From: an uncultured Chloroflexia bacterium
Lineage (GTDB): Bacteria > Chloroflexota > Anaerolineae > CG2-30-64-16
DNA length: 64,000 nucleotides
Direction: 5' to 3'
NCBI GenBank assembly: GCA_963810095.1
Contig: CAWEMM010000007.1
Coordinates: forward strand, 544,001 to 608,000
The notes below the pieces were generated by a model. That model ran no database searches. It was not told where the DNA came from and was given only the letters and a program-made list of their open reading frames with translations. A program made the translations under genes and the position numbers. Below are positions 16,501 to 43,413 of this stretch, one piece after another; within the stretch, counting starts at the first letter, position 1; each line of letters starts with the position of its first letter.

Positions 16501-19500
16501 GGACGTGGCAGTCGCCTATCCCGACCCCCGCAACGCGACCTACAGCGACGATGCGCTGTGGGGGCTTTCGTGGGGGCTGGGCCAGCAGTTCTTGACGGGT
16601 CGCGACTGCGAGATCAACAACTCGCTGTACGACAATGCGGCCGACGACGAGACGTGCTTCCGCGATTCGCCCCGCGATTTGCCCGATATCTCGATCTTCA
16701 AGGCGGACAAGTTCGGCTACCCCGCGGGCAACTCGACTATTAGCGAACGCTTTGCCTACACCAGCACCGTCACGGGCAACTCCCGGTGGAACGTTCCGGC
16801 GAAGGCGTTGAATGTCGAGGATTATCGCTACGACCATGTGGACTACATGTCCTACCTCGCAGCGAACGTCACGCCGGTCATCGTCGCCAAGTATGACACG
16901 ACGGAGGTCCCCACGCTGTTGTTCGCGCGCGAGGAGCGCTACCGCATGGCGACCCTGGAAGGCGGCGCCCAGGCGAACAATGGGTTCAACATCAAGCTGG
17001 ACGAGAGTAACTACCCCGAGCGGACCGTCCGCGGCCTGAGCTGGGCACCGTACTATTATAAGGACGGCGAGTGGCAGGGGTTCGCCAGCGAAGACTACTG
17101 GGGTCCGCTGTCAGACGAGCTACACGTTCGCTTCTGGGCCGATTACCCAACGGCCACTTCCGACGAGATCGAGGGCCGGGTGGCCGTCGCCCGCTCCTAC
17201 TACATGGGGCTGATCACCGGCGCGGCCCAGTCCATCGACGTGACGCAGCCGCACCATGACGGTGAGTCCGATTCGGAGCTTGCGGGCGTGGCCAGTACCG
17301 CCTTCGCCACCGCCGCCGGCGCAGATGCCGCGCCAGCCGCCGTGGCAGCCGGATGGCCCTGGCTGAGCCGGGTGGCCGACGACATCATCATCCAGATCTG
17401 GAACGCCATTGGCGCGACCAAGACCATGGCCGTGCCCTACGGTCCAGGGATGTTTGTCGACGATCTCGGTAACATCTTCTGGAAGCCTTCGCTGGGCTAC
17501 AAGATCGTGGGTACGGGCCTGAACAAGGGCTACGGCATGGCGCTCGGCGCGTGGCAAGATTTGCTCTCCTCGCCGAAGGCCTACAAGGTGGCCGGCCTGG
17601 TGATCTTCTCGGTGGCGATTGTGACCGCGGCCGTATGCTTGATCGTGGGGCTGAGCCTCGACAAAGACACGCTGACCGTATTGATAGCGACCGTGGAGGT
17701 GGCCGGCCTGGCTCAACTCATCGTCGGGGCCGTTGCGGAGTTTTCCAAAGCGGTCTCGATGGCCGGCGGCTTCGGGAAGCTGGTGGCGAATAACCTCGTC
17801 AACACCGGCCTCACGCAGTTCGTCGGCACAGTCAAGGCCAACGCGTCGGGTGTGGTCACCGCCATCATCTCCGGGGTGATGGCGTGGGCGAGCTGGGGCA
17901 TCTCGTGGGCGATGGGCGGCTTGCAAGCGGGCAGCATGGCCTGGGACGAGACGCTGGCCGCGACGATTGCCTCCACTCTCGTCACCATCATCCTCTTCGT
18001 GATCTTCAACGCGCTCGGTCCGTTAGGGATGCTCATCAAGTCCCTGATCAGCCTGGTCGACGCACTGGTCGGGCTCATCTGCAGCACCTTCCTCACGGAT
18101 GAGCAGGAGCAAAGCGCGGCGGGCGATCTGCTGTGCGGCGGCATTACGGGGCTGATCAAGAAGCTCGTTCAGTGGCTCATCTACAGCGGGGCGGTCATCC
18201 CCGAGATGGACCCGGACGAGGACCAGGGCGAGCCGTGGTATCCCCGGCTAACATTCGGTGGCATGGACATCGACGTCGATCCGCCTGACAAAGGGATCAT
18301 CGTCGGCAGCAAGATGGGCGTCAGCATCGCGCTCACGAACACCATCGACATGGCCGACATCCCGCACAACCTCTGGGCGCAAGCCTACTATGACCAGTGG
18401 AATGACACCAACCTCAAGAAGTCAAACTTCCAGTACAAGTGGCAGGAGGCCGAGACCGATTTCCACAAGGACATGGAGCTGGGCGGGATCTCGCGCAAGT
18501 GGGAGACGAGCGGCGGGCGCCCCTTCCGCTACAAGACCACCCTCGGCACCGGCACCGTGCTCCCGCTGAATCGGGCCGGCATCAACCAGACCCTAAGCCC
18601 GCTCTACCTGTCGGAGGCGTACGCGGTGCCCGAGCAGGAGTGCTGGGGTCTCTTCCCCTTCGGGGGCTGCGGCATATCGACCGAGCGGGCGAGCTACCAC
18701 TACGATTTCGGCGGCAGCCTGATCTTCGACGTGCTGCCCAACAGCATCACCGACTTCTACCAATTGGCTCCCATCGGGGGCAGCTATCACCTGGCGTGGG
18801 GCAACGCGATCTCCTTCCCCGGCCTGTTCGACGCGGACGGCGACACCTTGCCTGCGACGACGGATCCCAACGACAGCCGGTGGGACACGGACTCTGACGG
18901 GCTGGGCGACCAGTTCGAGCGGACGACCGGCAGCGACCCGAACAAGCCAGACACGGATGGCGACGGGCTGACCGACCTGGAAGAGGCCCGGGCCGGCACC
19001 AACCCGCGGCTGAAGGACACCGACGGCGAAGGCTTGCAGGACGGCTACGAGGTCTACCACCAGGACCTGAGCGATCTGGACCAGGACGGCAACACGACCG
19101 AGTGGCTGGGCGGCTGGGAGTTCGTCTACGGCCGCGATGCCGACGGCGCCCCGCTGATCACGCGGGTTTATTCTGATCCCACCTCGGTGGACGCGGACGG
19201 CGACACCCTGACCGACAAGCAGGAGAACACGTTCGGCTACAACCCGGACGCGCCCTCGGTCCTCAATGTGCTGACGCTCCAATCAGAAGTCAGGGAGGCC
19301 GGGGCGAGCACGACCGACGGCTTTGTCAAGCCCGGCGACACGCTCAAGTACACCGCGACGGTGAAGAACGAGCTGGATCTCCGGCAGGCCGAGGGTGTGC
19401 TGGGCACGCTGGCGACGCCGCTGCTCGATGCCGCCAAGATTCCACAGCCCAAGGACTTCGTCCTCGACGCGCTCGAATCGGTGCAGCAGACGGGCGACCT

Positions 19501-22500
19501 CGTGGTCAAGGCGGGCGCGACCTCCGGCCCTTACAGCCTGACCCAGGTAGCCGGCGCCCTGATCACAGACTGGCGGACCGGCTCGGGCGGCACCTCGCTG
19601 TGGCTGCGCTTCGACGATCCCCAGGCCCTGTACCGGGACACCTCGGGCAGCCAGCCGGACCACGACGGCACGTGCAAGGGCGTTGGCTGTACGATCACCA
19701 CGGGGCGCTACGGCAGCGCGCTCCATCTCGACGGCAGCAGCTACGTCTTCTCGGCCGTGCCCGTCGCGGCCACCGAATATGCCGTCTCGTTCTGGTTCAA
19801 GGCCGACTCCACCTCCGACACCTACCAGGGCAAGCTGTTCACCGACGAGGACCCGAACACGCACCGGGAACGCGTCGACATCATGTACGACAAGCGGTCC
19901 GTCTGGGTCAGCCTCTATGGCTGCTCAAACGGGTCCTGCTGGAACGACAACATCTCCAGCCCCGCGTATGGGCTGGCTGCGCAAGAGTGGCATCACGTGG
20001 TGCACACGTACGGCGGCCTGGCGGGCAAGCAGAAGCTGTATATCGACGGCCGGCTCGTAAAGGAAGGGTTCTTCACCTCCACGGCCGCATCCACTTCGCG
20101 GACCAACATCGGCGGCACCCCCACGGCTGGCCTGTGGTTCGCGGGGTCCATCGACGACGTGCGGCTGTACGAGCGCGGGCTGACCGCCGACGAGGTCTGG
20201 GCGCTGTCCCGGCAGCCGGTCTTCCACATGGACTTCGAAAAGACCAGCGGCTGGGAAGACGTATCGAGCTTCCATGCCGGCGTTGCTCCTGTCGACAGCA
20301 GCCACACCCCGGTGCACGACACAGGGGGAATTCAGGGCAGTGCCGCGAAGCTCAACGGGGTCAGCTACCTGAACGTCTCGAACAACCTCGCGAGCACCCC
20401 GCAGCTCGATCTCAGCGGCGGCAAGTACACGATCGCAGCCTGGGTCTACCCCCAGAAAGGCTGCGGTTTCGACACTCAGCCGGGCGCAATCCAGTCCATC
20501 GTCAGTTCTAACGCGGAGATCAGCAAGCGATATCCCGACTTGACCCTCACGACAGACCCGGGACAGAGCAGCCTGGCCGCGATTGGGACAGGTTTTGGTA
20601 CGGGGAGCAGCTATCAGTATGCCGATGGGCCGTGGAGCGTGCCCTTCAACCAGTGGACACACGTGGTCATGACCTTTGATACCGATGTCTTCGGCGATCA
20701 GGGGTATGACAACGACGTCCAGGGCACGTGGCGGCTGTACACGAACGGCAAGGAAACCTGGCACAACACGGTCGAGACATCGGGCGCGAAACCGTACGCG
20801 ACGACCTATTTCCAGGTCGGTCAGATCGCGAGCGGGATGGCGCACTCGTTCTGCGGCAAGATCGACGAGCTGGTCATCTACAACCACGTGCTCGACGCTG
20901 ACACGATCGCGGCCTTGACCAGCGACGGCGCATCGGCCTTGCATCTGCAGCTCGACGAGGCGCCGGGTTCGGCGTCGTTCCACGATGACAGCGCCGCGCA
21001 GCGCGAGCTCGGCTGTGCCGGGTCCGGCTGCCCGGGCACGGGGCTGGCGGGCCGGGTGAACCAGGCAGCACAGTTCAGCGCCTTTGAGAATGTGGGCAAC
21101 GCCCTGACGCTGGGGAACAGCGCGGTCAACCGGTTGACCAACAACTACAGCGTGGCCGGATGGATCAAGCCGAGCAGCCTCGCCAGCCGGCAGCACATCC
21201 TGGCGACAGGCAAATGCAGCAGCACGGGCGCCGGCTGGAGCTTCGGCCTCTACCTCAACGACCTCCGCTGGGAGAGCTTTGGGGCGCAAAGCCACATCCT
21301 CAGCCTGTCGGGCGCCGGAGGAGGGGGCGCGCAACTCCAGGCCAACCGCTGGTATCACGTGGCCCTGGTGGCGGATGCGGCCAACAAGCTCACCTTCTAC
21401 ATCGACGGGCAGGCGAAGGGCCAGGTCCAGGGGTTCGCTGCAACGGCTGACACGGCCAACCGGCTGGTGGTGGGCGGGTGTGACACCGGCACGAGCATCG
21501 TGGAAGGGCTCGACGGCATGCTCGACGACCTGTGGGTGTACGGCACGGCACTGACTGCCGAGCAGGTCAAGGCCCTGTTCGACGCCGCGCCCGTCATGCA
21601 GCTCCATCTGGAAGAGGCGAACGGCGCGACAACCTTCAAGGACGACGGCTGGCCTGGTAGCGTGGCGACCTGCCCCACCGGCCATTGCCCCACGATGGGC
21701 GAAGGGGTCAAGGGGCAGATGGGCCTGGCGGCAGGCTTCATCAACCCGGCCCAAATCAATGTGCCCTACAACGCGGGGCTGAACACGCCGAAGTTCACCA
21801 TCGGAGGGTGGCTCCGGCCGGACGCGTTCCCACCCGACGCCGCCCCCGGCAAGCGATTGCTGATGGCGAAGGGCCTCGTCGGCCAGGAAGAGTGGAAGTT
21901 GTGGCTGAACACGACCCAGTCGGTAAACATCTACCGCTCGTGCAGCAACAGCTCCATCGAGTTCCCTAGCGAGGCGACCCTGCTCCCAGAGCAGTGGAAC
22001 TACGTGTTGGTGACGTACGACGGCGCCATGCTGCGCTTCTACATCAACGGGAGCGAGAGCGGCGCCCACGCCTTCACGAAGGCGTGCACCGACAGTGGAC
22101 AGGGCGTGCGGCTGAGCAGCTCGTCGGGTGGCTTCAGCGGCCGCATGGACGAGATGGTCGTGTACAACCGGGCGCTCACGCCGAACGAGATCCTCACGCT
22201 CTACAACTACCAGTCAGGTTGGATCGAAGACCGGAATAGCCAGACGATCGTGGTAGACAACGAGGCTCCCACCGTCTCGGTGGTGATCACGGACGGTGTG
22301 CACCTGCCCGACGGCTGGCCCGTGGTCGTGGCGCTCGACGCCCAGGACGCCTCATCGGGCATCCAGTCGGTCGACTTGCTCGTCTCTAAGGGGGGCGGCG
22401 CGTACACGCCCGTCCATGCCCAGCAGTGTGCGGACCCCGCCCAAGGCCCGGCCTGGTGCGCCACTTTCACGCCTTCGGGCGAGGCTCAATACTCGCTCTC

Positions 22501-25500
22501 GGCAAAGGCGACCGATCGCGTCGGCCGCACAGCCGACGCTACGAAGAAGTTGGTTCTGGTCGACGCGACCGCTCCGTCGCTGAACCTGGCGCTCACCGAG
22601 GGCCAGTTGGTCAGCGCGACCCGCAGCGCGACAGATCCGCCCATGTGGCTGATCCATCTGAGCGGCACGGTCAGCGACGCCCCGGTGGTCAGGGGTACTG
22701 AGAGCGGCATCCCCCGCGAAGGGTTGCGCGTCACGCTGGTCGACGCGGAGGGCGAGGCCCTGGGCGAGGCCGGCCAGATTGCGACGATTGCGGGCGACTC
22801 TGCGGCAGGCTCAGACACGGCTTGGTCGCTGGACTACGCGGTGCCCGACGCCGAGCCGGACGGCTGCTACACGGTCAAGGCCGAGGTGGTCGACAACATC
22901 ACGGCCATCCCCGGCTTGCCCGAACAGCAGAAGGCGCTACATACGACGGCCAAGAGCAAGGGCATCGTGATCGATTCCCGGCCCCCACAGGTGGTGCTCG
23001 ACCAGTCCTCGCTCGCTCATGGCATGCTGGGCGCTGGCGTGACGAGCCTCGGCGGCGAAACGACCAAGCGGCCGGTGCCGGTTGAAGTCGACATGACGAC
23101 AACCGCGGGCGCGGACCTCACGGGCGTCAAGCTGACGTGCCGGCACGGCAACGCCGGAAGCTGGTACACCGTCTTCGAGATGTTGCCCGGCCAGTTGGCC
23201 CCCGGCTCAGGCGCAGGCTGGGATGGCGAAATCCACAAGCTCTCGACCTGCACCCTCGACCTGACCACGACGGCCACAAAGGGCGGCGTGGCCGGCACCA
23301 TCAAGGTGTGCGGCGAAGCGCTCGACCTGAATCCTGACTGGACGGGCGACTTCTCGGCCGCGCTGAGCATTACGTTCGTGGTCAATTCGACGCGCTGCTT
23401 GGCCCGGGGTTGCACCGCCGACCAGGCGGTGTCGGGCACGCAGAAGGTGGAGGTTGCGTTCACACCGATTTTGCAAGGCTCGGCGTGGCTGAACGAGGCC
23501 CCGCTGGCCGGCGAGACGCTCCACATGCCGTTCGACGATACGCCGAACGCGGATGGCTCGATGCTGGTGCGCGACGTGTCGGGCATGGGGCACACGATGG
23601 CGGTGGATGGCACGACGGCGCCGAGCCCTGGCCAGGCGGGACAACTGGGCAGCGCCTTCTCCTTCGACGGTGTGGACGACTACGTCAGCATCCCCGACAG
23701 CGACGATGTCGATTTCGCGGCGAGCCAGGACTTCGCAGTGATGGCGTGGATCAAGCCCGCCGCGCAGCAGCTCTGGACCGCGACCACGGACAACGACGTG
23801 ATCGAAAAGTGGTCCGGCGCTACCGCCTACCCCTACGTGGTCCGCTACGTCAACTCGACCGGGGGCGCCAACGCCGGCAAGATCAGCGCGGCCCGCTATG
23901 ATCGCTCGACCAGCACGGTCCTGACCTCGGCCAGCGCCATCAATGACGGCAAGTTCCACCACGTCGCGTTCGTCCGGAACGGTGGGATGGTGAGCCTGTA
24001 TGTCGACGGGGTCCTGTCGGCCGGGCCGGTGCAGGACAAGGTGGCTAGCACGACGACGAACAGCTCGCCATTGTACATCGGCCGGCGCGGCGCCGGCGAC
24101 ATGCCGAACTACTTCACCGGCCAGGTCGACGACCTGCGCATCTTCAAGCAGGGCCTCACGGCCGACGACGTGAAGACGATCTACACGGGCAGCGCCGCGC
24201 AGCTTGTGATGGCGTTCGAGGAACCGTTGGCGGTCGGCGGCGACAAGGTGAGCGATGGCTCGGGCTGGGGCCGCGACGGCACGCTCAACACCGGCAGCGG
24301 CGACACGGCGAACAAGACCATGCCCGGCCAGGTAGGCAACTACGCGCTCAAGCTGGATGGTGTGAACGACGGTGTTGCCATCGACAACTTCGGCGTCTTC
24401 ACGACCACCACGGTCTCGGCCTGGGTCTATCGCACCGGGGCCACGACTGGCCGCGAGACGATCGTCTCCTACAAGGAAGACGCAAACTGCGGGCTCGTCC
24501 TGGCGCTGGAGAGCCAGTCGCCGATCTTCTATGTGCATGCCAAAGGCACCTGGTACCACATCCACGATACCACGGGCGAGGTGCCACTGAACGAGTGGGT
24601 GCATTTCGCGGTCGTGCAGACCCCCGACCACATGCTTATCTTCCGCAACGGAAAACAGGTCGCAAGCGGGTATTGGGCGACCATCCCAACCGCGATGGAC
24701 CAGTGCGCCGGCCGCACCGGCATCGGCGTGCGCAGCTCGCTCGACCAGCACTGGTTCCCCGGCGCCGTCGACGACGTGCGCTTCTACGGCCGGGTGCTGA
24801 GCGCAAACGAGATCGCCGACCTCTACAATGCGGGCTGGCACACCACCACGCTGAGCGCCGGCGGCGCGACCGTCGACAGCGCCACCTGGAGCATGAAGGT
24901 CCCGACGACGACGCTTGGGTTCGAAGGCACCTATCGTCTGGACCTGCGCGGGACAGACTCCAACGGTCACACCCAGGCCGTCAGCGAGCCCAGGCACCTG
25001 TGGCAGGGTGAGATCGACAACCTGGCGCCGCGGGTGACCCTGTGCAAGGCGCTCGTGAGCGGTACGACCTACCGCTACGTCGCGGAGGCGCAGGACTACA
25101 ACCTGGTCGAACAGGGCTTCGCCGCTCCGTGCGCGATCTCTTCACGGACAAACTACCAATCGCCGTGGCTGCTCAGCACGATCCCCACGGGTGACGCCAA
25201 GCTGAACAAGCTTCGGGCCGACTGTTCGCTCAGCGCGGCGGTGGTGGAGAAAGCGACCGCCTGCGACAGCGCCGGCAACTGCACGACGGCCGGCGTGACG
25301 AGCGGCGGCGCATGCACGAGCATCCTGGCGAGCCCCGCGGCGATGGCAGCCGGCGTGCCCGACTCCGTCACCCCGACGACGCCGGTGCTCGGCATCGTGC
25401 CAACCGTGCTGACGACGACGCACTACTCGGGCCTCGGCGAGGTTGTCGTGACCGGATACCTGACGGGCACGGCGAACCTGGATGCGATCGAGGTGACTGT

Positions 25501-28500
25501 CGACGGCACGACCGGGAAGGCGAGGCTGACCGGGCCCGACACGCAGTGGCCCTTCACGACCACGTGGAGCTACCGCTGGCAGCCGCAGGCGGGCCCTCCT
25601 GACGGCGCTCAATTCGAGACGACCGCAAATGCCGTCGTCCACCGGGGTCCGCGGATTCCGGCGGTCGAGACGTTCCTGACGGTCGACGTGCTGCCGCCGG
25701 CGGAGGTCGAGGTGGCGCTGACCGCGAACGGTGCGCCGGTCGAGCCCGGCGCGGTCTTGCGCACAGCCTCGCCGCAACTGCGGCTGGCCTGGGACGCGAG
25801 CCGCGACGGCAGCGGCGTGGCAGGCTACACGACCCGCTGGGTGACCACGTCGGCGCTGAGCCGCACGGTGGAGACCCGGGCGGCCGGCGCCGGCGGTCCT
25901 TACGAGGATCGCTATCAAGCCGGCGACGCGCAGACTGTTGCCGTCGAGTTGATCAGTCGTGACCTGCTCGGCAACGAGCGCTCGCAACCCTTCGGCGCAG
26001 TCGTCGTCGACGGGCCGCTGACGCCCGACCTGGTTCAGCTGCCGGCCGATCCCGGCGTCCCCCCTGATCCCGAGTGGATGGAGACCGGCTGCACGCTGCT
26101 CACGACCGACGGACGGGCCGCACGCATCAGTGGCGCAGGCGCATACCCGATCCAGGCCCTGTACGGAAGCTGGGACCAGGCGGCGCTGCGCCTGACGTGG
26201 GCGGGCGCGGACTGGAGTTCGGACGGCGATCTGTTCGTCTATCTCGACACGGGCGCGGGCGGCACCCGCGACCTGTTCACCCCATACCCGGTGCCCGAGA
26301 AGGCGAGCCAGTTCCTGCTGCCTTCGAGCCTGGACGCCGATACGCTGGTGTGGGTGCAGGACAACTTGAAGGCCAGCCTGCTCAAGTGGCAAGGGGGCGG
26401 GTGGCAGCCCGCCGGTGAGCTGACCGCGTCGCAATACCGCTTCGACCCGGTGAGCCGCGACGGCGAGACGGACCTATACCTGCCGTTCAAGCTGTTGGGC
26501 GCCCGCGCGGGTGATCCCATTCGTGTCCTTGCTCTTGCCGCCGAAGAACCCGTCTCGGGCGCCGGGCTGCAAATCTGGGCGACCGCGCCGCACACCAACC
26601 CTGCAAACAGCGCGCGCTCGAACCAGCGGGCCGCGCTCGGCTGCGCTGCTGGCAAGTCGGGGCGTGACGATCCCGTTGCTGCACTACTATGATTGGGCGG
26701 CCACGGGCGACGGGGTCTGCCCGAACGGCACGAACGCCGAGCGAAATACCAACGTCCAGCTCGAAAACTCGGTGTCCTCCGACCCAGTCGGCGCTGCCGT
26801 GTCCGGGCTCGATCTCCCGCTGCTCTGGGACGCGGCCGGCGCGGCGGCCGGCGGTCTGACGGCCGCATCCGGCGCCGCAGGACTGGACCTCGGCCCCGAC
26901 AGCTTCGTGATGGACTTTCTCAACCCCGAGCACCCGCCCCTGGCGAATGGCAGCACGGTGGTCTACACCGTGCGGGTGGCCAACAAGGGCACCAGTGCGC
27001 TCGAAGGCGCCTGGCTGGCGCTGAGCGGCCTCGGGGCCGTACGTCTCCTCGAGGAGCGAGTGGAACTGGGTAATATCCCCGCAGGCGAAGAACGCACGGT
27101 AACCTTCAGCGGCGTGACAGACCTGAGCCTGTCCGAACGGCCTGTGGCCGCGGCCCTTGCGCAACTCTACGCGGCCGGCTACCGGCCCGAGAACCCCGCC
27201 CTTGACTGGTTCCTCGTGGCACACCGCGTCGACAGCGGTGCCCCCGAGAGCTTTGGGCTCGACCTGGGAGCGCGTATCGTCGGCGCCGACTTCGGCCAAC
27301 TGAGCGGCTATGCGTTCGACGAGTCGAGCGTAGCGGCCGTGAAGATGGAAATACGGTCGCCCCAGGATGAACTCTGGTCGGTCACCTGCCCATTGCGCCG
27401 CCAGGAGGCCGGTCGTTGGACCTGCCAGTGGGACGCGACGGGGACGCCGCAGGGCGCGCCTCTGCCCGACGGCGAGGAACTCACCGTGCGCTTCCAGGTC
27501 AAGGATCGCCTGGGCCAGGTGAGCGGGTGGGGCCAGGCCCACACGGTCCGGGTGGACGCCCGGGCGCCCAAGCTCACACTGCCCGATCAACCGGCGACCG
27601 TACAGGCGGGCCGGCTCCGCCTCTCGGGGGCGGTGGAGGATGCCGCGGGCGTGGCGCGGGTGTGGGTGTGTGTGGACGGGAAGTGCCGGGACGTGGACCT
27701 CGTGGGTGGGCTCAAGAGCCGTACACATTGGTCCTTCAGCCCGGGCATCGGGGCTTCCGACTACCTGACGCACACGGTGACGCTGCAGGCGGAGGACGCC
27801 CTCGGAAATCGGACGGCCGAGCCGCAGACGTTCCAGATCGTCCTCGACAACGTCCGGCCGCGGGTCACCGTCGACCAGGCCGGCGCGCAGCTTGTGCTCG
27901 GTGCGACGGAGACCGTGCTCACGGGAACATCGACCGATGGCAGCCCGTTCGTCCGGACGTGGGTGCGAGTGCAGGAGCCGGACGGGAACATCGTCTTACG
28001 CAGCGTGTCGCAGGAGGGCGGACCACTGGAAGTTCGACCTCGCGGGCGAGCGCCCGGGTCGCTACGTGCTGTCGGTCGTAACGAAAGATGCGGTCGGCAA
28101 CATGACGCGGACCGGCGAGTACGCGGTCGACGTGAGGTGTACGGATGCGGCGTTCGGCGTCGGCAAGATCACGGTGACCGCCGTGGAAGGCATGACCCTT
28201 ACGCAGACGATTGCCGCGACTCTGACGAACAGCGGACCCGACCCGCTGCCCGCGGGCATTCCCGTCGGCTTCTACGACGCGAATGGCCGGCTCGCCGGGC
28301 TGGGCACGAGCATGGCGCTGGCCGCGGGCGGCCAAGAGACGCTATCGGTCACGCCGTGGACGGTGCCGGCTGCCGGCCGTTATGAGTTGATCGTGGTGCC
28401 GGCCGACCCGGACCTCGGCACGCCCGTGCCGGTCGCCTTCTGTACCACCCCGGGCGCGGAGCGGGCGCTCGTCTGGGCCGGCCCGCTGCCCGAGATGCTG

Positions 28501-29943: not shown

Positions 29944-30420
29944 CTACTCGTCCCCCCCGCCTTGCGGCGCGCTGCCGGCCGGTTCGATACCGCGCGGTTC
30001 GATACCGCCGCGCACCGAGAAGCGCTCGTAGACGTCAGGGCCAACGCGGATCAGGCGCCGGGTCTGCATGTCGATCGGGCACCAGAGCGAGCGGGCGCGG
30101 GCCAGCACCCTCTGGTCGCTCACCCGCACGATCTCGACGAAGCGCTCGAAGATGTGGCGCTCGGCCCCGCCCACCCAAGTACGGCCGACGACCTCGTCGC
30201 CAAGGCGCGCCGAGTCCAGGTACTCGATCTCATGGCGCTTGACGAGCCAGCCGATCTTCGCCTTTTGCGCCTCGGTGGCGCGGGCAAACCACGCGGCCGT
30301 CGAGATCTCCTGGACCCAGCGCACGTAGACGACGTTGTTGACGTGCTGAAAAAAGTCGATATCTTCCGGATGGATGGGAATCGGTTGCTCGAAGCGCTCC
30401 GCTTCAGGTTCGGCTGGCAT
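29944..30420 (-). CDS. acyl-CoA thioesterase (4HBT/hotdog fold)
   Basis: EDIDFFQHVNNVVYVRW, HEIEYL, WCPID. Confidence 0.9.
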   Translation of the reverse strand: MPAEPEAERFEQPIPIHPEDIDFFQHVNNVVYVRWVQEISTAAWFARATEAQKAKIGWLVKRHEIEYLDSARLGDEVVGRTWVGGAERHIFERFVEIVRVSDQRVLARARSLWCPIDMQTRRLIRVGPDVYERFSVRGGIEPRGIEPAGSAPQGGGDE

Positions 30421-30472
30421 GACTCGGCTTTCCTCAAAATGATGGCGCGCCCGAGGGCGCGCTGCAGCCGCG

Positions 30473-30501
30473 ATTATCGCACCATCTCTCGGACGCGTCA
30501 A
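30473..30501 (-). promoter_or_regulatory. sigma70 promoter for the thioesterase-MFS operon
   Basis: Minus strand TTGACG-N17-GATAAT. Confidence 0.55.
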
Positions 30502-30543
30502 CGAATACGGGGTGCGCTCGCCTAGATTCCGTCAAAAGGGGTA

Positions 30544-30572
30544 TTGACACGGCGGCGCAGCGGCGCGATAGT
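30544..30572 (+). promoter_or_regulatory. sigma70 promoter for the candidate ncRNA
   Basis: TTGACA-N17-GATAGT. Confidence 0.6.
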
Positions 30573-30578
30573 GGAGTC

Positions 30579-30916
30579 GCCACTGGAGGAATGTCCGCAC
30601 ACTTTGGACGAGGGTCCACAGGTACCGAAAGGTCAGTGCGAGAGTTCCATCAGAGAAAGGAGGCAAAACGCAACTGAAAGGCAAGCAAAGTTTAGGTTGT
30701 CCAACAGTGGCGAGAGAGCCCCGAGAATCTGAACGGCATGTTCCGGCTTGGCACTTCCTGTAATCTGGAAGCTCGCAGGCAGCCCGATAGGTCAGAAGTG
30801 TTAGCGGGGCTGCCAGGGTGCGATAAAGACGCAAGCACGCGGAAGGAACCAGAACGGGTGCTTGGGGCCTCTCAGTAACTCAAAGCCGCCGGTCGAGCCC
30901 GACCGGCGGCTTTTTT
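30579..30916 (+). ncRNA. candidate large structured ncRNA, family unassigned
   Basis: Bounded by promoter and terminator; ends pair (30582-30589 with 30868-30876); many nested helices, a GAAA tetraloop, A-rich linkers; no credible CDS. Confidence 0.65.
30882..30916 (+). terminator. Rho-independent terminator
   Basis: AAAGCCGCCGGTCG-AGCC-CGACCGGCGGC-TTTTTT. Confidence 0.9.
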
Positions 30917-31126
30917 GTGCCCCGGCGCCCCCATCTCTCACCCCGCACCCGCCCCCACCCCCTGCGCAATCTGTGCCAAATTCCTCCGCGCGAAACTCTG
31001 TGAACAGGAGTATAATCGCGCGCGGCGGACTAGCCGATGGGCGACAGCACTCGTAAGTGAGTGCTGGGCCGGCTTAGCGCTCTGTCTCTGAGAGCGGGCC
31101 GGCGCACGCGAAAGGAGACTGTAGAA

Positions 31127-31561
31127 ATGAGACGCGTTCGGCTCTTCCTCGTCGTCGCCATTGCCATCTCCATCTTTCTGCTTGCGGTGCCTGCGTATGC
31201 GACCCCGGCACAAACAGCCGGGGGCTCGGGGTGTGCCCAATTCTATACGGTCCAGTGCGGCGACACGCTGTACAAGATCGCAGTCCGCTTCGGCACCAAC
31301 ACTTGGGCGCTGGCGCGGCTCAATGGGATCAGCAATCCTAACGTGATCTATGCGGGGCAGACGATCTGTGTCAAGGCGGCTGCACCTATCCCGCCTCCGC
31401 CGTCTCAGGGCGGCTTCTGGTACACGGTGAAGTGCGGCGACATGCTGCGCGTCATCGCAGCCCACTACGGCTGGGGCACCTGGTATCTCGCGGGGGTGAA
31501 CGGCATCGCGAACCCGGATGTGATCTATGTGGGGCAGCGGCTGTGGATACCCTACCATTGA
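31127..31561 (+). CDS. secreted protein with two LysM domains
   Basis: AAAGGAG RBS; TATAAT at 31011-31016; signal peptide; YTVQCGDTLYKIA...NPNVIYAGQ and YTVKCGDML...NPDVIYVGQRLWIP. Confidence 0.9.
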   Translation: MRRVRLFLVVAIAISIFLLAVPAYATPAQTAGGSGCAQFYTVQCGDTLYKIAVRFGTNTWALARLNGISNPNVIYAGQTICVKAAAPIPPPPSQGGFWYTVKCGDMLRVIAAHYGWGTWYLAGVNGIANPDVIYVGQRLWIPYH

Positions 31562-35494: not shown

Positions 35495-38020
35495 CTAACC
35501 CAACCTTGCCAACTCCTGCTCGACCTGATCGATTGCAGGCGTGCAGCCTCCGTCTATGATATCGACCCGCAGCGTCTCGTCGTCCGGCGTCTTGGCCAAT
35601 GGCAGCTTACACGCTTCGAACTCGGTCCGCGCTTGCTCGAAGAGCTGCCGCGCCCGCTCGAGGTTGCCTGCGCCCGCGGCCAGCCGGCCGCCGCAGAGCC
35701 GGGCGGCGCCCGCAATCGCATGATACTGGGCGACCATGCGCCACAGATTCCCGCGCTGCAGCGTATCCAGGATGGATGGATCCAGGGCGCGGTCGGCCTG
35801 GTCGAGTACCCTCTGTGCGTCCGCGCTCGTCTGCTCCAAGGGGCTCTGGCCGTACAGGTAGCACAGCGTTTCGGCATGTGCGACCAGCGCGTCGCCCTGT
35901 CCGAGCCGCGCGATCGGCAGCTGCGGGCTGGCAGTAGCGCCCTGTGCGGCGGCATCGTCCGAAGCCTTCGCCGCCTGCGTAACGGCCAGTTCGTACTGGT
36001 TCTCCGCCTGCTCCTGCAGCCCGCCCGGCTCCAGGCTCGTCAAGGGATCGGCCGCGATCGCGAGATCGAGCAGCGCGCCTGCCAGCACGATCCGCGCGCG
36101 CACGTTGTTCTGATCGATCTGCAGCGCCCGGTTCGCGTCGTCCGCCGCGGCCTGGCTCTGGTGCAGAAACAGCTTCTCGCGCGCCAGGAAGTAGTACACG
36201 TCGTCGATCCCCGAGCCGGCCGGCGCGCGCTGTACCGCCCCGTCCTGAGACACCGGTTGTGACGGCGCTGCGGCAGTGGCCAGGCCCAGCTTTGCCTCCA
36301 GCGCCTGGAGCACGGTGAGCGCTCGGGCGTGGTCGCCGATCGCGTCGTACTGCAGCGCGAGGACGATGGTGTTCATAATCTCCATCCGCCGGGTCACTTC
36401 GCGGCGGACGGCTTCCCGGCCCGCCGAGTCCTGCGCCAGGTCGCCGACGAACGCGATGGGTTGGCCCAGCGTGTAGTAGCCAATGGCCTCGCCCGCGGTC
36501 GCCGCCAGGCGGGGGAACACGAAGAACTCGGGGGCGAGCTCAAACTTGTCTTGAGACTGGCCCGGCTCCCGCGTGATGCGGGCCGAGATGACGACGTTCG
36601 CCTGGATGCGGTCGGCCAGCACGCGCGCTTCGGCCTCCCGTTCCCCGTCCGTCGACTTCTGCAGTACGGGCAGCGGGTCGCGCTTCTGCGAGCGCGGCAG
36701 CCCGTTATACCAGACGCCCACCCGCTCGGTCGACGTGACCGGGTCGCCCCGCGCGCCAAGCTGCGCCACCATCCACGATCGAACGAGCGCTGCGTTGGGA
36801 GCGGCCGCAAACTTGCCGTCGTTGCCCTGCAGCCCGGGGTCGAGCACCGCGACGTTGAGCGTGTTCGTGCTGTCCATCTGCGTCGGGCCGGCCCGCCACC
36901 AGATGAAGAAACCGAGGAGCGCAACCGCGACGACCGCGGCCGCAGCCCCGAGCGCAAGCCTGATCCGTTTCTGCCGGATCGCCGGGTCGGGCCGCCACAG
37001 GTGGCCGTCGGCCGCCCGCATGTACAGCACGGCCGTGGCCCACTCGCTGGGGAAGCCGCCCGAGTACAGCGTCTTGCGCGCCTCGGCCATGGCCTCGTCG
37101 ACGGCCGCACCCGCCGCCAGTGCCGTGTAGAAGCTGCGAGCCAGCGCCTCGGCAGCGGCGGCAGAAATGGCCGAGCGCATCGCGATAACCGCCGGCACGC
37201 CCCCGCGCACCAGCCGCTGCGCGACGCCGGAGTACGGGTCCTGCACACCGCTGACCGCGCCCCGGCACGCGCTGATGACTGCGAGGCGCAGCGACCGCTG
37301 ATCGCGCAGCAAGGTGGTGAACGTTTCGCCGCTGACTGCGTCGCCCTTGCCGTCGGCCGCGGTCAGCAGCAGCACGCTGTCCTGATCGTCCTCAGAGTAG
37401 TCCCCGTGGCCGAGGAAGTGCAGGATGTGGTACTCCTGCTTGAGCAACTGCCGCTGCAGGTTGTCGACCGTGGGCGGGTCCAGCCGGTCTACCGTGACGA
37501 CCCCGCGGCCCTCCAGGTCGGCCATGCCCTGCTTGAGGTTCGTCCATTCCTGGTCTGCGTCGAGTGGTGGATAGTCTGACGGGCTGGAGAAAACCGCCAG
37601 CACCCGCAGCCGGATTTCCGGCGTCCCGGGCTCGGCAGGCTCGGGCAGGTCGAGGTAGCGCACAAGGGGTGTCTCGCGCGAGAGCCCGAGGAAGGTCGCC
37701 CGCTGCCCGTCGTACATCAACTCCCACGGCAAGCCGGCGAGTTCGGGCGTCTCCGAGAGCCGCAGGCGGATGCGCAGCCCCCGGTCCGAGCGCTGTGCGC
37801 TGTCGAGGCTGCGGCGCAGGCAGCCAAGCACGTCGCCGCTGAACACCGCGTCAAACAGCGCGCCGCCCATCACTTGCGGCGCAGCGTCGGCCGGCAGGTG
37901 GTCGACCGGCCCCAGCTGCGCACGCGCCTCTCCCGCAGGCGAGCTCAGGACGTGCGCGCGGTAGCCGCCGTCGGCTTTCTCGATCTCCAGGTCGAAGTTG
38001 AGATACACCAGCTCGGGCAT
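35495..38020 (-). CDS. CHAT (caspase-like) protease domain, TM helix and TPR-like C-terminal region
   Basis: LPWELM, HILHFLGHG and LAVISACRG (His/Cys dyad), GVPAVIAM; TM LALGAAAAVVAVALLGFFIWW; ALQIDQNN TPR. Confidence 0.85.
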   Translation of the reverse strand: MPELVYLNFDLEIEKADGGYRAHVLSSPAGEARAQLGPVDHLPADAAPQVMGGALFDAVFSGDVLGCLRRSLDSAQRSDRGLRIRLRLSETPELAGLPWELMYDGQRATFLGLSRETPLVRYLDLPEPAEPGTPEIRLRVLAVFSSPSDYPPLDADQEWTNLKQGMADLEGRGVVTVDRLDPPTVDNLQRQLLKQEYHILHFLGHGDYSEDDQDSVLLLTAADGKGDAVSGETFTTLLRDQRSLRLAVISACRGAVSGVQDPYSGVAQRLVRGGVPAVIAMRSAISAAAAEALARSFYTALAAGAAVDEAMAEARKTLYSGGFPSEWATAVLYMRAADGHLWRPDPAIRQKRIRLALGAAAAVVAVALLGFFIWWRAGPTQMDSTNTLNVAVLDPGLQGNDGKFAAAPNAALVRSWMVAQLGARGDPVTSTERVGVWYNGLPRSQKRDPLPVLQKSTDGEREAEARVLADRIQANVVISARITREPGQSQDKFELAPEFFVFPRLAATAGEAIGYYTLGQPIAFVGDLAQDSAGREAVRREVTRRMEIMNTIVLALQYDAIGDHARALTVLQALEAKLGLATAAAPSQPVSQDGAVQRAPAGSGIDDVYYFLAREKLFLHQSQAAADDANRALQIDQNNVRARIVLAGALLDLAIAADPLTSLEPGGLQEQAENQYELAVTQAAKASDDAAAQGATASPQLPIARLGQGDALVAHAETLCYLYGQSPLEQTSADAQRVLDQADRALDPSILDTLQRGNLWRMVAQYHAIAGAARLCGGRLAAGAGNLERARQLFEQARTEFEACKLPLAKTPDDETLRVDIIDGGCTPAIDQVEQELARLG

Positions 38021-38098
38021 GCGTGACTGACTCCCCGGCAACAACAAAGCCCAGGAGCGATCCTGGCCTGGGCCGCATTCCTGGGTGCAACTTGTACG

Positions 38099-40581: not shown

Positions 40582-43413
40582 TTGGCTGCGAGCCTTGAAC
40601 CCCTACGCCTGCTGCGCACCAAGCTCTATCGCCCGCGCCCCACGAGCGGCTTGATCGCTCGCCCGCGCGCCCTGGAGATCCTCAACCGGCGAATGGACCG
40701 CGCGCTCACGCTGGTGTGCGCCCCGGCCGGATTTGGCAAGACGACCCTCATCAGCGATTGGCTCGAACACTGCGCGGACCCGAGCGCCTGGCTGTCCCTC
40801 GACAAGGGAGACGGCGAGCTCGGCGTCTTCCTGAGTTACTTTGTCGCGGCGGCCCGCACCCTGTTCCCCGAGGCTTGCGCGAATACCCATGCACTCCTGC
40901 GCGCACCTGCGCTGCCTCCGTTCGGCCATCTTGCGACCGCGCTCGTCAACGATCTCGACGAAATGGCGGACAACCTCGCGCCCGATGAGCGGTTCATCTT
41001 CGTTCTCGACGACTACCACCTGGTCAGCAATTCGGCCGTGGATGCCCTGTTGACAGAGCTTTTGCGTCACCTCTCCCGCAGCCTCCACCTGGTCATCAGC
41101 ACCCGTCGTGATCCCCCGTTTCCCGTTCACACCCTGCGCGCACAAGGGCAGTTGACGGAGATCCGCATCGCCGAGCTCCGTTTTACAGCGGAAGAGGTGG
41201 GCCTCTTCATGCAGGCCGCGTCAGACACGCCGTTCGACGCGGAGGTGATCGGGTCCCTGGTCGACCTGACTGAGGGTTGGAGTGCCGGGCTGCGCCTGGC
41301 CGCGCTGGCGCTCAACGTGGGCGGCGACGTTGCCGGTTCGTTGACTTCGTCCGGGTTCGATAACCAGTATGCCATGGGCTACCTGCTGAACGAAGTGCTC
41401 TCGCACGTGTCCCTGCCTGCTCAGGAGTTCCTCCTCGCCACTTCCATCCTCGACCGGCTCTGCGAGCCCTTGTGTGATGCCGTGGTCGGCGCGACCGACA
41501 TGCCCCGGACGGGCGACGCGTCCCTCGAAGCGTTTGTTGCAAACAACCTCTTCACCTTCTCACTCGACGAGCAAGGCGTCTGGTATCGCTACCACCACCT
41601 GTTTCAGAAGATGCTGCGCAACCAGCTTATGCGGCGCCGCAAGCCCGACGAGATTGCCGGGCTCCACCGCCGCGCGAGCCACTGGTTAGCGCAAAACGGC
41701 GATATAGACGAGGCCATCGAACACGCCCTGGCCGGCGGCGACGAGATGGCGGCCGTCCGCCTGGTCGAGGCGAACCGGCACAAGGCCATCAACCACGAAA
41801 ACTGGCGCCAACTCGAGCGGTGGCTGAGCCTCATGCCGCGGTCGCTGGTCGAGCGGCGCCTCGAGCTGCTGCTGATGCAGGCCTGGCTGCTTACGACCCA
41901 GTGGCGCATCACAGACCTGCCGCCCCTCTTGCAGCGCATGGAGCAGATGATCGCGTCAGGGGACAGTGCGCTGACCGGCGGCGAGGCCGCATTGGGAGAA
42001 GCCCAAGCACGGGAGTTGAAGGGCGAGGTCGACGCGCTGCGCGCCGTCCTCTTATTCTACGTGTTTGACGCCGAGCGGGCCATCGCCTCTGCCCGGCGGG
42101 CGCTGCAAGCCGTCCCGCTCCGCAACTCGGGCGTGCGCGGCGTCGCATGGTTGTACTTGGCGGGCGGTCTTCATCTCGCCGGGCAGACGGAAGCCGCCTA
42201 CGAAGCAATTCTCGAGGGACTCCAGGAAGACCGGCTGCATCGCAATTCCTTTGCCACCCGGGTGTATATGGCATTCTGCATCGTGCGGTGGTTGGAGGCC
42301 GACGTGCAGGGCATGTTGACCGGCGCAAACCAGATGCTGCTGACCGCCCGCGAGCGCGACCTCCCGGAGGCAGTCGGCTGGGCCCACTACTTCCGGGGCT
42401 GCGCACTCTACCACATGAATGACCTGGACGGGGCCGAGGAAGCATTTGTATCGGCCGAGCGGCTCCGCTATCTCACCAATGGGAACCCCTACTCACAGAG
42501 CGCGTTCGGGTTGGCTCGTGTCCTGGCGGCCCGGGGGAAGATCGACGAGGCGCGGGCCCTGATCGAATCGGTGGCGGGATACGCGCTGGAGATTGGCAAC
42601 CCGCGCATCATTGCGGATGCGGACGCGGCTCGGGCGTGGGCAGCGCAGCAAGCGGGCGCCGACGCGCAGGCCCTGCGCTGGGCGCTCGCCTATGATCTGA
42701 ATGCGCCCCCGGTCCCGCTAACCACGTTCACTTCAGCGCAGGCGCTGCTGGCGCGAGTCCTGGTTTCCGCGTCGACGGCGCCCGCGATCGACAAAGCCGC
42801 GCACGCGCTGTCGCGCCTGCGCGAGCTTGCCGTCCAGACACACAGCAGGCAGTACCTGGTCGAGGTGCTTGCGTTGCAAGCAGTGTTTGACGCCGCGCAG
42901 GGCAACTATGCTTCTGCGCTGGAAGCGCTGCGGCAGGGTGTCAAGCTCGCAGAACCGGGCGGGCTTGTGCGCCTGTTTGTCGAGCTGGGCCCGGCCATGG
43001 CCGGCCTGCTCCAACAGCTCGCGGCGGGTCCCGCGCCAGCGCCTTTTCTCCAGAAGCTCGTGGCCGCCTGCGCGGACGAGGCCCAAGCGCGGCGTGAGGC
43101 GGCGCCATCCACTGCCCCCGCCGAGCAGGCGGGCGGACTGACAGAATCTCTCGCGCAGCGAGAGCCCCTCGCGCAGCGAGAGTCCCTTTCGCCGCGCGAA
43201 CTAGATGTGCTGGTGCTGCTGGCGCAGCGTATGGTGGATAAGGAAATTGCCCGTGAGCTGAGCATTTCGCCGATGACGGTCAAGCGGCACGCGTCCAACA
43301 TTTACCGCAAGTTGGGCGTCTCGAATCGCAGGGATGCCGTCGTCAGGGGCGCCGCACTTGGCCTGGTGCCGCCGCCGGCAGCCCAGCGCCGCCGCCCCCA
43401 GCGGCCCCAGTGA
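40582..43413 (+). CDS. MalT-like STAND ATPase/TPR/LuxR-HTH transcriptional regulator
   Basis: LLRTKLYRP, APAGFGKTT, VLDDYH, TEGWSAGL, YRYHHLF, LSPRELDVL...TVKRHASNIYRKLGV. Confidence 0.95.
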   Translation: MAASLEPLRLLRTKLYRPRPTSGLIARPRALEILNRRMDRALTLVCAPAGFGKTTLISDWLEHCADPSAWLSLDKGDGELGVFLSYFVAAARTLFPEACANTHALLRAPALPPFGHLATALVNDLDEMADNLAPDERFIFVLDDYHLVSNSAVDALLTELLRHLSRSLHLVISTRRDPPFPVHTLRAQGQLTEIRIAELRFTAEEVGLFMQAASDTPFDAEVIGSLVDLTEGWSAGLRLAALALNVGGDVAGSLTSSGFDNQYAMGYLLNEVLSHVSLPAQEFLLATSILDRLCEPLCDAVVGATDMPRTGDASLEAFVANNLFTFSLDEQGVWYRYHHLFQKMLRNQLMRRRKPDEIAGLHRRASHWLAQNGDIDEAIEHALAGGDEMAAVRLVEANRHKAINHENWRQLERWLSLMPRSLVERRLELLLMQAWLLTTQWRITDLPPLLQRMEQMIASGDSALTGGEAALGEAQARELKGEVDALRAVLLFYVFDAERAIASARRALQAVPLRNSGVRGVAWLYLAGGLHLAGQTEAAYEAILEGLQEDRLHRNSFATRVYMAFCIVRWLEADVQGMLTGANQMLLTARERDLPEAVGWAHYFRGCALYHMNDLDGAEEAFVSAERLRYLTNGNPYSQSAFGLARVLAARGKIDEARALIESVAGYALEIGNPRIIADADAARAWAAQQAGADAQALRWALAYDLNAPPVPLTTFTSAQALLARVLVSASTAPAIDKAAHALSRLRELAVQTHSRQYLVEVLALQAVFDAAQGNYASALEALRQGVKLAEPGGLVRLFVELGPAMAGLLQQLAAGPAPAPFLQKLVAACADEAQARREAAPSTAPAEQAGGLTESLAQREPLAQRESLSPRELDVLVLLAQRMVDKEIARELSISPMTVKRHASNIYRKLGVSNRRDAVVRGAALGLVPPPAAQRRRPQRPQ

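Follow-up and report, generated by a model that had tools for sequence, protein, structure and literature searches.

What does an A-rich, apparently non-coding stretch of a Chloroflexota genome produce, if it is framed by transcription signals of its own? We have addressed this question for one locus of an uncultured Chloroflexia bacterium (GTDB class Anaerolineae, CG2-30-64-16; GenBank assembly GCA_963810095.1). The DNA analysed, hereafter the window, comprises 64,000 nucleotides of contig CAWEMM010000007.1 (positions 544,001 to 608,000, forward strand), and the element lies at window positions 30544-30916, between a thioesterase gene (-) and a LysM gene (+, start 31127). An original prediction, made from the sequence without database searches, had proposed here a large structured RNA gene, possibly new. 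Overall, the best explanation, which we regard as likely, is that 30579-30916 (+) holds an independent gene whose product, a structured non-coding RNA (ncRNA) of ~300-340 nt, belongs to a family not listed in Rfam 15 and acts in trans, possibly with a closing rod as its handle. That the locus gives rise to a real, transcribed RNA of a new family is in itself very probable.

The signals at both ends of the element were found again as originally described. The proposed promoter, TTGACA-N17-GATAGT, shows 10 of 12 consensus matches in a consensus scan, and the surrounding 1.5-kb region contains 3 promoter-like sites against 0.2 expected from shuffles. The terminator is indeed a strong intrinsic one, with an 11-bp hairpin and a run of six U; it appears as a perfect hairpin in several of the chance Rfam alignments, and a simple scan picked up its inner part only. 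The transcript start was derived from the promoter geometry, and both ends are predicted. Between these signals, the composition differs from the surroundings as had been claimed: the RNA has 27.5% A and 56% GC, compared with 17.2% A and 66.4% GC for the whole window. The minimum free energy (MFE) of 30578-30880 is -115.2 kcal/mol (z = -3.24), a value equalled by 0 of 100 shuffles. The open reading frames (ORFs) overlapping the element are all short, and an antisense ORF of 100 aa has no Pfam match.

A BLAST search with the element matched 12 of 61 related genomes, its own included and one of them through the terminator only. The 12 sequences, when aligned, show an invariant core, GCCCCGAGAA ... 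GCUUGGGGC, and every one has its own promoter and a downstream hairpin. From the core we have built a covariance model, R1 (199 positions, 12 seed sequences, the window copy among them). R1 matches 36 of the 37 genomes of the taxonomic family, which is the whole order in our collection: all 16 high-quality genomes are matched, and the sole miss is a genome that is 63% complete. The window copy, a seed sequence, scores 130.8 bits. Most genomes have one copy by R1, while there are two in the host genome (G000) and in G012, and four in a sister genome (G001). Among 151 evenly sampled class genomes, R1 found only the order members and three weak matches (34.1, 24.7, and 21.8 bits). An exact-motif scan of one genome per species (185,579 genomes) gave 28 places, all of them in metagenome-assembled genomes (MAGs) labelled Chloroflexota, Chloroflexi, Chloroflexia, Anaerolineae, or Anaerolineales. 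Within one uncultured Anaerolineae order, the predicted RNA family occurs in practically all genomes.

We further surveyed the anatomy of the gene in 34 order sequences from 32 genomes. All 34 have a counterpart of the window promoter with at least 9 of 12 matches, close to the consensus TTGACA-N17-TATAnT with spacings of N16-18; the -35 box is TTGACA or TTGACT in 33, the -10 box has the form TAnnnT, and GCCA follows exactly 7 nt past the -10 box in 33 as well. All three sense frames are interrupted by stops in 34/34 sequences, and all six frames in 24/34, which agrees with the earlier view that no credible coding sequence is present. Two forms of the RNA occur, and they differ only in the 5' domain enclosed by helix P0: it has 22-38 nt in nine sequences and 116-134 nt in the other 25, and short and long forms coexist within one genus. 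The form of the 5' domain sets loci L018, L020, L025, L028, L029, L032, L037, L039, and L052 apart from the rest. The window copy carries all the family features, i.e., promoter, GCCA start, P0, rod, Pa, H1, and Pb, where the rod has the family signature GAGRG-A-GCCCCGAG...CUUGGGGC-C-YCUC.

The original prediction had asked for a transcript, and matching sequences are found in RNA libraries. Among public runs, 16 share words with 30400-31100, of which 15 are recorded as RNA, from 10 studies. We compared contigs from four of these runs, belonging to four studies (sediment, sludge, and freshwater metatranscriptomes). The contigs of 240, 236, 255, and 235 nt correspond to 30589-30823, 30593-30828, 30616-30869, and 30596-30830, respectively, with 0-1 differences, and two further library pieces stem from related sequences. 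Over the whole set the contigs begin at 30589-30616 and end at 30823-30875, where contig ends are not transcript ends. No library contig covers the flanks 30300-30578 and 30889-31200, which is not evidence that the flanks are silent. These contigs are a hint of expression of the window RNA, not proof.

The secondary structure was derived in two ways (Table 1). RNAalifold on the core and on 24 long-form sequences gives the closing rod (P1), Pa, and H1, while P0, P1d, and Pb were added by inspecting the alignment. In the resulting topology, P0 abuts the rod P1, whose P1b segment is a helix of 8 bp; a purine-rich internal loop joins the rod to Pa, and Pa bears H1 and Pb. We counted 42 pairs on the MAFFT alignment A3 of the same 24 sequences. 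In total 92.1% of the cells are paired, in comparison with 32-47% after a shift of the 3' partners by 1-3 columns; both-side changes occur in 14 of the 42 pairs; and compensatory cells number 68, against 24.3 +/- 4.5 in shuffles, with 0 of 500 shuffles equal. The predicted fold P0 + P1a-d + Pa + H1 + Pb is backed by covariation. Two conserved G-U pairs of the rod are viable on the + strand only, which fixes + as the transcribed strand.

Individual helices vary in different ways. In an ungapped register, 26 of 33 homologues form at least 6 of the 8 pairs of P0. Pa occurs as GCUCG/CGAGC, GCCCG/CGGGC, GCCCU/AGGGC, GCUUG/CAAGC, and GCUCA/UGAGC across the family. Pb is CUCGC/GCGAG in the family, with the window register shifted by 1 nt, and its inner domain is variable in both length and sequence. 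The H1 loop is a GNRA tetraloop in many homologues and UUCG in one. Downstream of the rod, the window's single-stranded tail corresponds to YGUUUAA in most homologues. Two tertiary features were considered and rejected. Docking of the H1 GNRA loop into a CUAAG-type loop below Pa shows no clear correlation, as GNRA loops occur with both CUAAG and YCAGG contexts and non-GNRA loops also with CUAAG-like ones. A kink-turn in the P1c/P1d loop does not, by inspection, fit the tandem G-A requirement of this motif.

About half of the pairings proposed originally correspond to this fold. GCCCCGAG/CUUGGGGC is P1b, CUUCC/GGAAG is H1, GGCAGCCC/GGGCUGCC is the lineage-specific helix inside Pb, and the hairpins of the 5' domain agree with the MFE fold. 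The remaining ones are not conserved helices. ACUGGAGG/CCUCUCAGU conflicts with the conserved fold, in which GCCACUG (30579-85) pairs with CAGUGGC (30705-11) and CUCUC (30869-73) with GAGAG (30712-16). UCAGA/UCUGA, UGCG/CGCA, and AAGCAC/GUGCUU each use a strand that the family pairs elsewhere, and the suspected GGAAC/GUUCC pseudoknot merely joins the two sides of one internal loop.

Table 1 Predicted features of the RNA gene in the window, with pairing statistics of the helices in 24 long-form sequences.
Feature	Position	Strand	Description and basis	Cells paired	Pairs with both-side changes
Sigma-70-type promoter	30544..30572	+	-35 TTGACA 30544-49, 17-nt spacer, -10 GATAGT 30567-72; consensus scan
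Predicted primary transcript, ~338 nt	30579..30916	+	GCCA start 7 nt past the -10 box; end at the terminator U-tract
P0, 5' strand	30579..30585	+	GCCACUG, pairs with 30705-30711; MFE fold, covariation
Variable 5' domain inside P0, long form	30586..30704	+	Hairpins UGGAC-GAGG-GUCCA and ACC-GAAA-GGU within CGCAC/GUGCG; MFE fold
P0, 3' strand	30705..30711	+	CAGUGGC; MFE fold, homologue pairing
Closing rod P1, 5' strand	30712..30737	+	P1a GAGAG 30712-16, bulged A 30717, P1b GCCCCGAG 30718-25, A 30726
Closing rod P1, 5' strand, continued		+	P1c AUCUG 30727-31, internal loop AAC 30732-34, P1d GG 30735-36; RNAalifold
Pa, 5' strand	30746..30750	+	GCUUG, pairs with CAAGC 30832-36; 3/5 pairs compensatory
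Hairpin H1	30754..30771	+	CUUCC 30754-58, loop UGUAAUCU, GGAAG 30767-71
Pb	30773..30823	+	UCGCA 30773-77/UGCGA 30819-23; encloses inner helix and loop
Lineage-specific inner helix in Pb	30778-85/30807-14	+	GGCAGCCC/GGGCUGCC, at conserved position
Pa, 3' strand	30832..30836	+	CAAGC; covariation count
Closing rod P1, 3' strand	30848..30873	+	P1d CC 30849-50, loop AGAA 30851-54, P1c CGGGU 30855-59
Closing rod P1, 3' strand, continued		+	G 30860, P1b CUUGGGGC 30861-68, P1a CUCUC 30869-73; RNAalifold
Single-stranded 3' tail	30874..30884	+	AGUAACUCAAA in the window; alignments
Intrinsic terminator	30885..30916	+	11-bp GC-rich stem GCCGCCGGUCG/CGACCGGCGGC (30885-95/30900-10), loop AGCC, U6 30911-16
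P0, pairing statistics				78.6%	4/8
Rod P1a-c, pairing statistics			10/18 pairs never vary	99.1%	5/18
Pa, pairing statistics				95.8%	3/5
H1, pairing statistics				95.8%	1/4
Pb, pairing statistics				86.7%	1/5

Does this fold belong to a known RNA? No match at the gathering score was obtained for any of the 4227 families of Rfam 15 in the 64-kb window. With permissive filters (30400-31150, E<=10), only 7 chance-level matches appeared, 4 of them on the terminator hairpin. The search of 20 homologous loci at E<=1 returned two tRNAs and two chance matches, none at the RNA. These results, together with the homologues in 36 of the 37 order genomes, bear out the suggestion that the RNA may be new. 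In the literature on structured RNAs of Anaerolineae and Chloroflexota and on the raiA motif, no description of this RNA turned up, which is not proof that none exists. What is new here is an RNA family without a detectable relative; the general kind, the orphan structured ncRNA, has precedents. Similarly, OLE, ROOL, and GOLLD are conserved, intricate folds that were found by comparative genomics ahead of any function, but the present RNA is much smaller, confined to one class, and without an Rfam match.

The usual housekeeping RNAs are encoded elsewhere in the host genome. The RNAs of the signal recognition particle (SRP; RF00169, 70.8 bits), transfer-messenger RNA (tmRNA; RF00023, 175.1 bits), and 6S RNA (RF00013, 85.4 bits, cut-off 46.4) are all above their cut-offs there, and the 6S, SRP, and tmRNA models have no match at the window RNA locus. 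RNase P RNA was tried as a candidate, as the 5' domain had been likened to its P4 and J11/12, and was dropped on two grounds: the model reaches 10.3 bits at the locus, on the terminator hairpin only, and a full-length class A RNase P RNA (RF00010) is found at another place of the genome (G000:C8:34093-34605 (-), locus L016; 64 bits, E 8e-19). The latter does not reach the Rfam gathering score of 100 bits; with a span of 513 nt and a model of only 367 positions, it must carry large insertions.

The overall shape invites a comparison with RNAs that bind RNA polymerase. A second RNA of the 6S or Ms1 type would mimic open promoter DNA by its rod and bubble, and much of the present fold is indeed a rod (P1a-d, Pa, Pb), in which P1d and Pa are separated by a large asymmetric internal loop. 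Like 6S and Ms1 RNA, ours appears to be abundant and is driven by a strong housekeeping-type promoter, and the matching RNA-library contigs fit this as well. Besides, some bacteria carry two 6S-type RNAs. On the other hand, the canonical 6S RNA lies elsewhere and its model is silent here, and neither the H1 branch nor the 5' P0 domain is a 6S feature. In 6S RNAs the shape is conserved and the sequence is not, whereas the helix sequence is nearly invariant in our family. We therefore regard this identity as very improbable.

A conserved bulged stem whose inner domains vary, together with the presence of several paralogs in the genomes of some species, also resembles Y RNAs and YrlA, whose stem serves as the handle for Ro60/Rsr and whose variable domain is the effector module. 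A U-tract directly after the stem, which we have seen in two distant groups of relatives, adds to this resemblance. However, the TROVE domain of Rsr (PF05731) has 0 matches in the host genome (88.5% complete), with positive controls in Deinococcus radiodurans and Bacteroides thetaiotaomicron, and no Rsr gene is adjacent. The 5' end here pairs internally to form P0, a separate domain beside the rod, and not with the 3' end. In addition, there is no meaningful Rfam match at the locus, nor a tRNA-like module, since no Rfam tRNA match falls on the RNA. A Y-RNA-like identity is hence extremely doubtful.

The original prediction had itself noted a tentative, unconfirmed resemblance to the raiA motif RNA (RF03072), and a very divergent member of that family would share much with our RNA. 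Both are stand-alone and structured, have ~200-300 nt, are closed by a long stem, vary in their peripheral domains, and are seen in RNA libraries. Like our RNA, raiA RNAs (PMC10861870, PMC12968392) are trans-acting, highly structured, and equipped with their own transcription signals, and the two families cover a range of ~160-340 nt; both also have a bulged, conserved closing stem and a lineage-wide vertical conservation. Even the neighbourhood is suggestive, because a gene with a Pribosyltran domain, at 9 order loci and 2 distant loci here, recalls comFC, which encodes a phosphoribosyltransferase-fold protein and stands beside raiA RNAs in 74% of cases, according to PMC10861870.

Sequence and context nevertheless speak against this kinship. 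The raiA model (gathering score 101.3 bits) has no match in the window at E<=10 or at the 20 homologous loci at E<=1; over the 37 order genomes it scores 19.2 bits at best, with no weak match on an RNA locus, and 0 of the 151 class genomes were matched, with the control genomes likewise negative. The first part of the published alignment (PMC10861870) looks unrelated: it reads ...GGU.CUGUGGUUG...AAGUCGAU.GCCA..., unlike GAGRGAGCCCCGAGAAAUCGAACGG of our family. Two motif strings of our family were not found in three raiA supplementary files of that paper, where gap characters could hide matches, and the conserved raiA linker UUAGACGUAA, quoted in PMC12968392, is not in the window RNA. The Pribosyltran neighbour proved to be hpt (NCBIfam TIGR01203, 175-193 bits, cut-off 150) and not comFC, and the position between comFC and raiA/hpf was not encountered; the neighbours here are hpt, DUF4015, and an EEP-family gene, in place of comFC and raiA. 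As to hosts, raiA RNAs are described in Bacillota and Actinomycetota, with few if any reported for Anaerolineae. The raiA core has a kinked P3a/P3b hairpin, pseudoknots PK1 and PK2, and GU and GGU bulges in P1, whereas our fold (P0, P1a-d, Pa, H1, Pb) is a secondary structure only, has no pseudoknots identified, and does not map onto that core in any obvious way. Hence we attach next to no probability to a raiA membership.

The genes around the RNA bear on whether it acts in cis or in trans. For each locus the downstream gene was called as the longest downstream ORF per strand, with Pfam deciding which is real. In 29 of 33 order loci this gene is convergent to the RNA (17 DUF4015, 9 Pribosyltran, 1 GNAT, 1 urocanase, and 1 methionyl-tRNA synthetase). 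It is co-directional in two, i.e., the window (LysM) and the paralog G001a (multihaem cytochrome), and the other two loci have no orientation call. Upstream, a divergent Exo_endo_phos (EEP-family) gene lies 400-600 nt away in 22 loci, and no conserved small ORF was found between it and the RNA. ComEC is a further neighbour gene.

A cis-acting leader would make the fold an aptamer and the terminator the expression platform for the LysM gene at 31127. Indeed, this gene is on the same strand as the window RNA and starts 211 nt past the terminator, the order of aptamer and then terminator is the usual layout of a riboswitch, and G001a too has a co-directional gene, 229 nt off. The two co-directional genes are unrelated, however, and the third paralog is convergent with a GNAT gene. 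A TATAAT is also present between the terminator and the LysM gene, as had been noted in favour of a separate promoter for that gene, although the promoter scan called no full promoter there. Above all, cis-regulation is unlikely because the downstream gene is convergent in 29/33 loci, and we consider the riboswitch very unlikely indeed. This result upholds the earlier view of a stand-alone RNA, and the RNA very probably acts in trans.

Two observations on the flanking DNA can be added. The spacer between the terminator and the LysM start (30917-31126, 211 nt) is C-rich (CCCCGCACCCGCCCCCACCCCC), has its TATAAT at 31012-17, and may form a hairpin (AGCACUCGUAAGUGAGUGCU) in what is likely the 5' untranslated region of LysM. 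Upstream of the RNA, we have observed a second conserved element of ~35 nt, (R)YTTAYCCACATATCCCCAGKCCCTACTAC, with the invariant core CACATATCC and a DnaA-box-like start, TTATCCACA. It occurs once per locus in 22 of 34 order loci (e.g., L018:1250-1290, L052, L019), always on the RNA-sense strand and 85-225 nt upstream of the RNA start, with a variable GC-rich hairpin ahead of it, and is not found with the window copy. It has no Rfam match. A regulator might bind there to control the RNA gene, or the divergent EEP transcript might begin with it.

For relatives outside the order, we used a looser pattern, which was checked on known members first and caught 28 of 37. It matched 20 of 401 class genomes, 13 in the order and 7 outside, while a reversed control pattern matched 1. 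One of the outside matches (G251) looks like chance, as it sits in coding-like sequence. The six credible ones are spread over three other families of the class, all have their own TTGACA-type promoter, and three are also matched by R1 (21.8-34.1 bits). These relatives keep the closing helix by both-side changes in P1a/P1b, namely GUCCCGAG/CUUGGGAC, GCUCCGAG/CUUGGAGC, and CCAAG/CUUGG, with a further one in CGGAAG/CUUCCG versus UGGAAG/CUUCCA, and their interiors of 99-205 nt cannot be aligned with those of the order. As it rests on weak R1 matches and a pattern scan, the spread beyond the order is probably underestimated.

The contrast between a fixed rod and free interiors suggests how the RNA might work. 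Since the rod, its bulged nucleotide, a purine-purine or Watson-Crick position, and the internal loop are near-invariant while the inserted domains vary freely, rod P1 would be the handle by which a partner, in all likelihood a protein, recognises the RNA. The RNA would then form an abundant ribonucleoprotein particle (RNP) in trans instead of acting on a neighbouring gene, with the P0 domain and the interior of Pb as modules specific to a lineage or paralog. Binding of a protein by the rod is the mechanism that we would propose, with a confidence somewhat short of even; what is left is spread over an RNA-only function, RNA polymerase binding, and others.

The same rod could instead be a mere processing stalk, for example an RNase III site, from which the interior or the 5' domain is excised as the functional RNA. 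In rRNA precursors, too, the sequences on either side of an RNA pair into a processing stem, much like the present helix of more than 20 bp, and the library contigs begin and end inside the predicted transcript, though contig ends are all that they show. Yet the 5' strand of P1 is covered by these contigs, one of which also spans the 3' strand of P1b. Moreover, conservation is highest in the rod and lowest in the interior, which is unalignable between families; a stalk would predict the opposite. A processing stalk thus appears highly implausible.

Several points weigh against our overall reading or limit its support. Within the order, 10 of 18 rod pairs do not vary at all, including 7 of 8 in P1b, and because of this the support for P1b rests on its flanking pairs and a handful of distant relatives. 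Kinship among the sequences alone can exceed column shuffles, with no structure needed, and the slid-partner control is partly biased, as the structure was derived from the same sequences. P0 is irregular in one clade, with 3 pairs, 2 mismatches, and 3 pairs in the ungapped register. The GCCA start is missing from the G001a copy, and only 21 of 37 homologues (3 distant ones included) show a clear T-rich tail behind a terminator hairpin in a crude scan. The E-values of R1 are rough, owing to a shortened calibration. The library evidence consists of assembled contigs with neither strand nor ends, and DNA can occur in such libraries. Finally, no conserved neighbour gene points to a function or a partner, and, rather than a protein, contacts with other RNA or alternative pairings could keep the helix sequence invariant.

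A feature of the locus that the original prediction had missed is that it holds not the standard copy of this order-wide gene. The canonical copy of the host genome (G000:C6:1373460-1373663 (-), locus L052) has a short 5' domain, scores 121.3 bits with R1, and lies between Exo_endo_phos and DUF4015 genes, the arrangement of most of the order; it is 79.0% identical to the copy of a congener, and canonical copies in general have conserved surroundings. The core of the window copy is 55.9% identical to it, in comparison with 73.3% and 65.4% to two copies of the sister genome. These two closest paralogs are also the only sequences with which the window shares its 5' domain, whose hairpins partly recur in them. 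To judge from sequence, the window copy is a divergent paralog, elsewhere seen in one sister genome only. In that genome, contig C25 has matches at 56740-56925, 69480-69667, and 71476-71567 (all -), i.e., two full paralogs and a partial one within 15 kb, and the canonical copy (G001:C24:455991-456192 (+)) is on a separate contig. The clustering points to local duplication of the paralog lineage.

Few bacterial RNAs combine order-wide conservation, a strong promoter, and an elaborate fold, and each of the known ones, such as RNase P, SRP, tmRNA, 6S, raiA, and OLE, either exposed a basic cellular process or remains an open problem. The present family adds such an RNA in a phylum that abounds in sediments, sludge, and digesters and yet has been little cultured; this may explain why curated RNA libraries lack the family. 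More speculatively, and as a possibility that we hold with less confidence than protein binding as such, it may be an unrecognised housekeeping-type RNA of Anaerolineae, with the near-invariant P1 as handle and swappable cargo domains, that forms the RNA half of an undiscovered abundant RNP. If so, this RNP would be comparable in standing to Y RNA-Ro or raiA-KhpA/B, and the window paralog, which joins 5' and inner domains of its own to the shared handle, would be a second subunit of diversified function. The covariation-supported fold, the split into handle and modules, the natural paralogs, and the metatranscriptome contigs are resources that can be used for an Rfam model, probing, imaging, and as bait. 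They should also improve the annotation of Anaerolineae MAGs, where the locus otherwise appears as an empty intergenic region or a spurious ORF.

Apart from the RNA gene, some other genes of the window deserve mention. A giant ORF at 13571-26692 (+) encodes 4373 aa with six Laminin_G_3 (concanavalin-like lectin) domains and a bacterial TSP3 repeat, and its product is probably a huge surface or adhesin protein. Further downstream, an 850-aa CHAT-domain protein is encoded at 35498-38047 (-), and near it lies the gene of a 943-aa MalT-like AAA/TPR/LuxR-type regulator (40582-43410, +).

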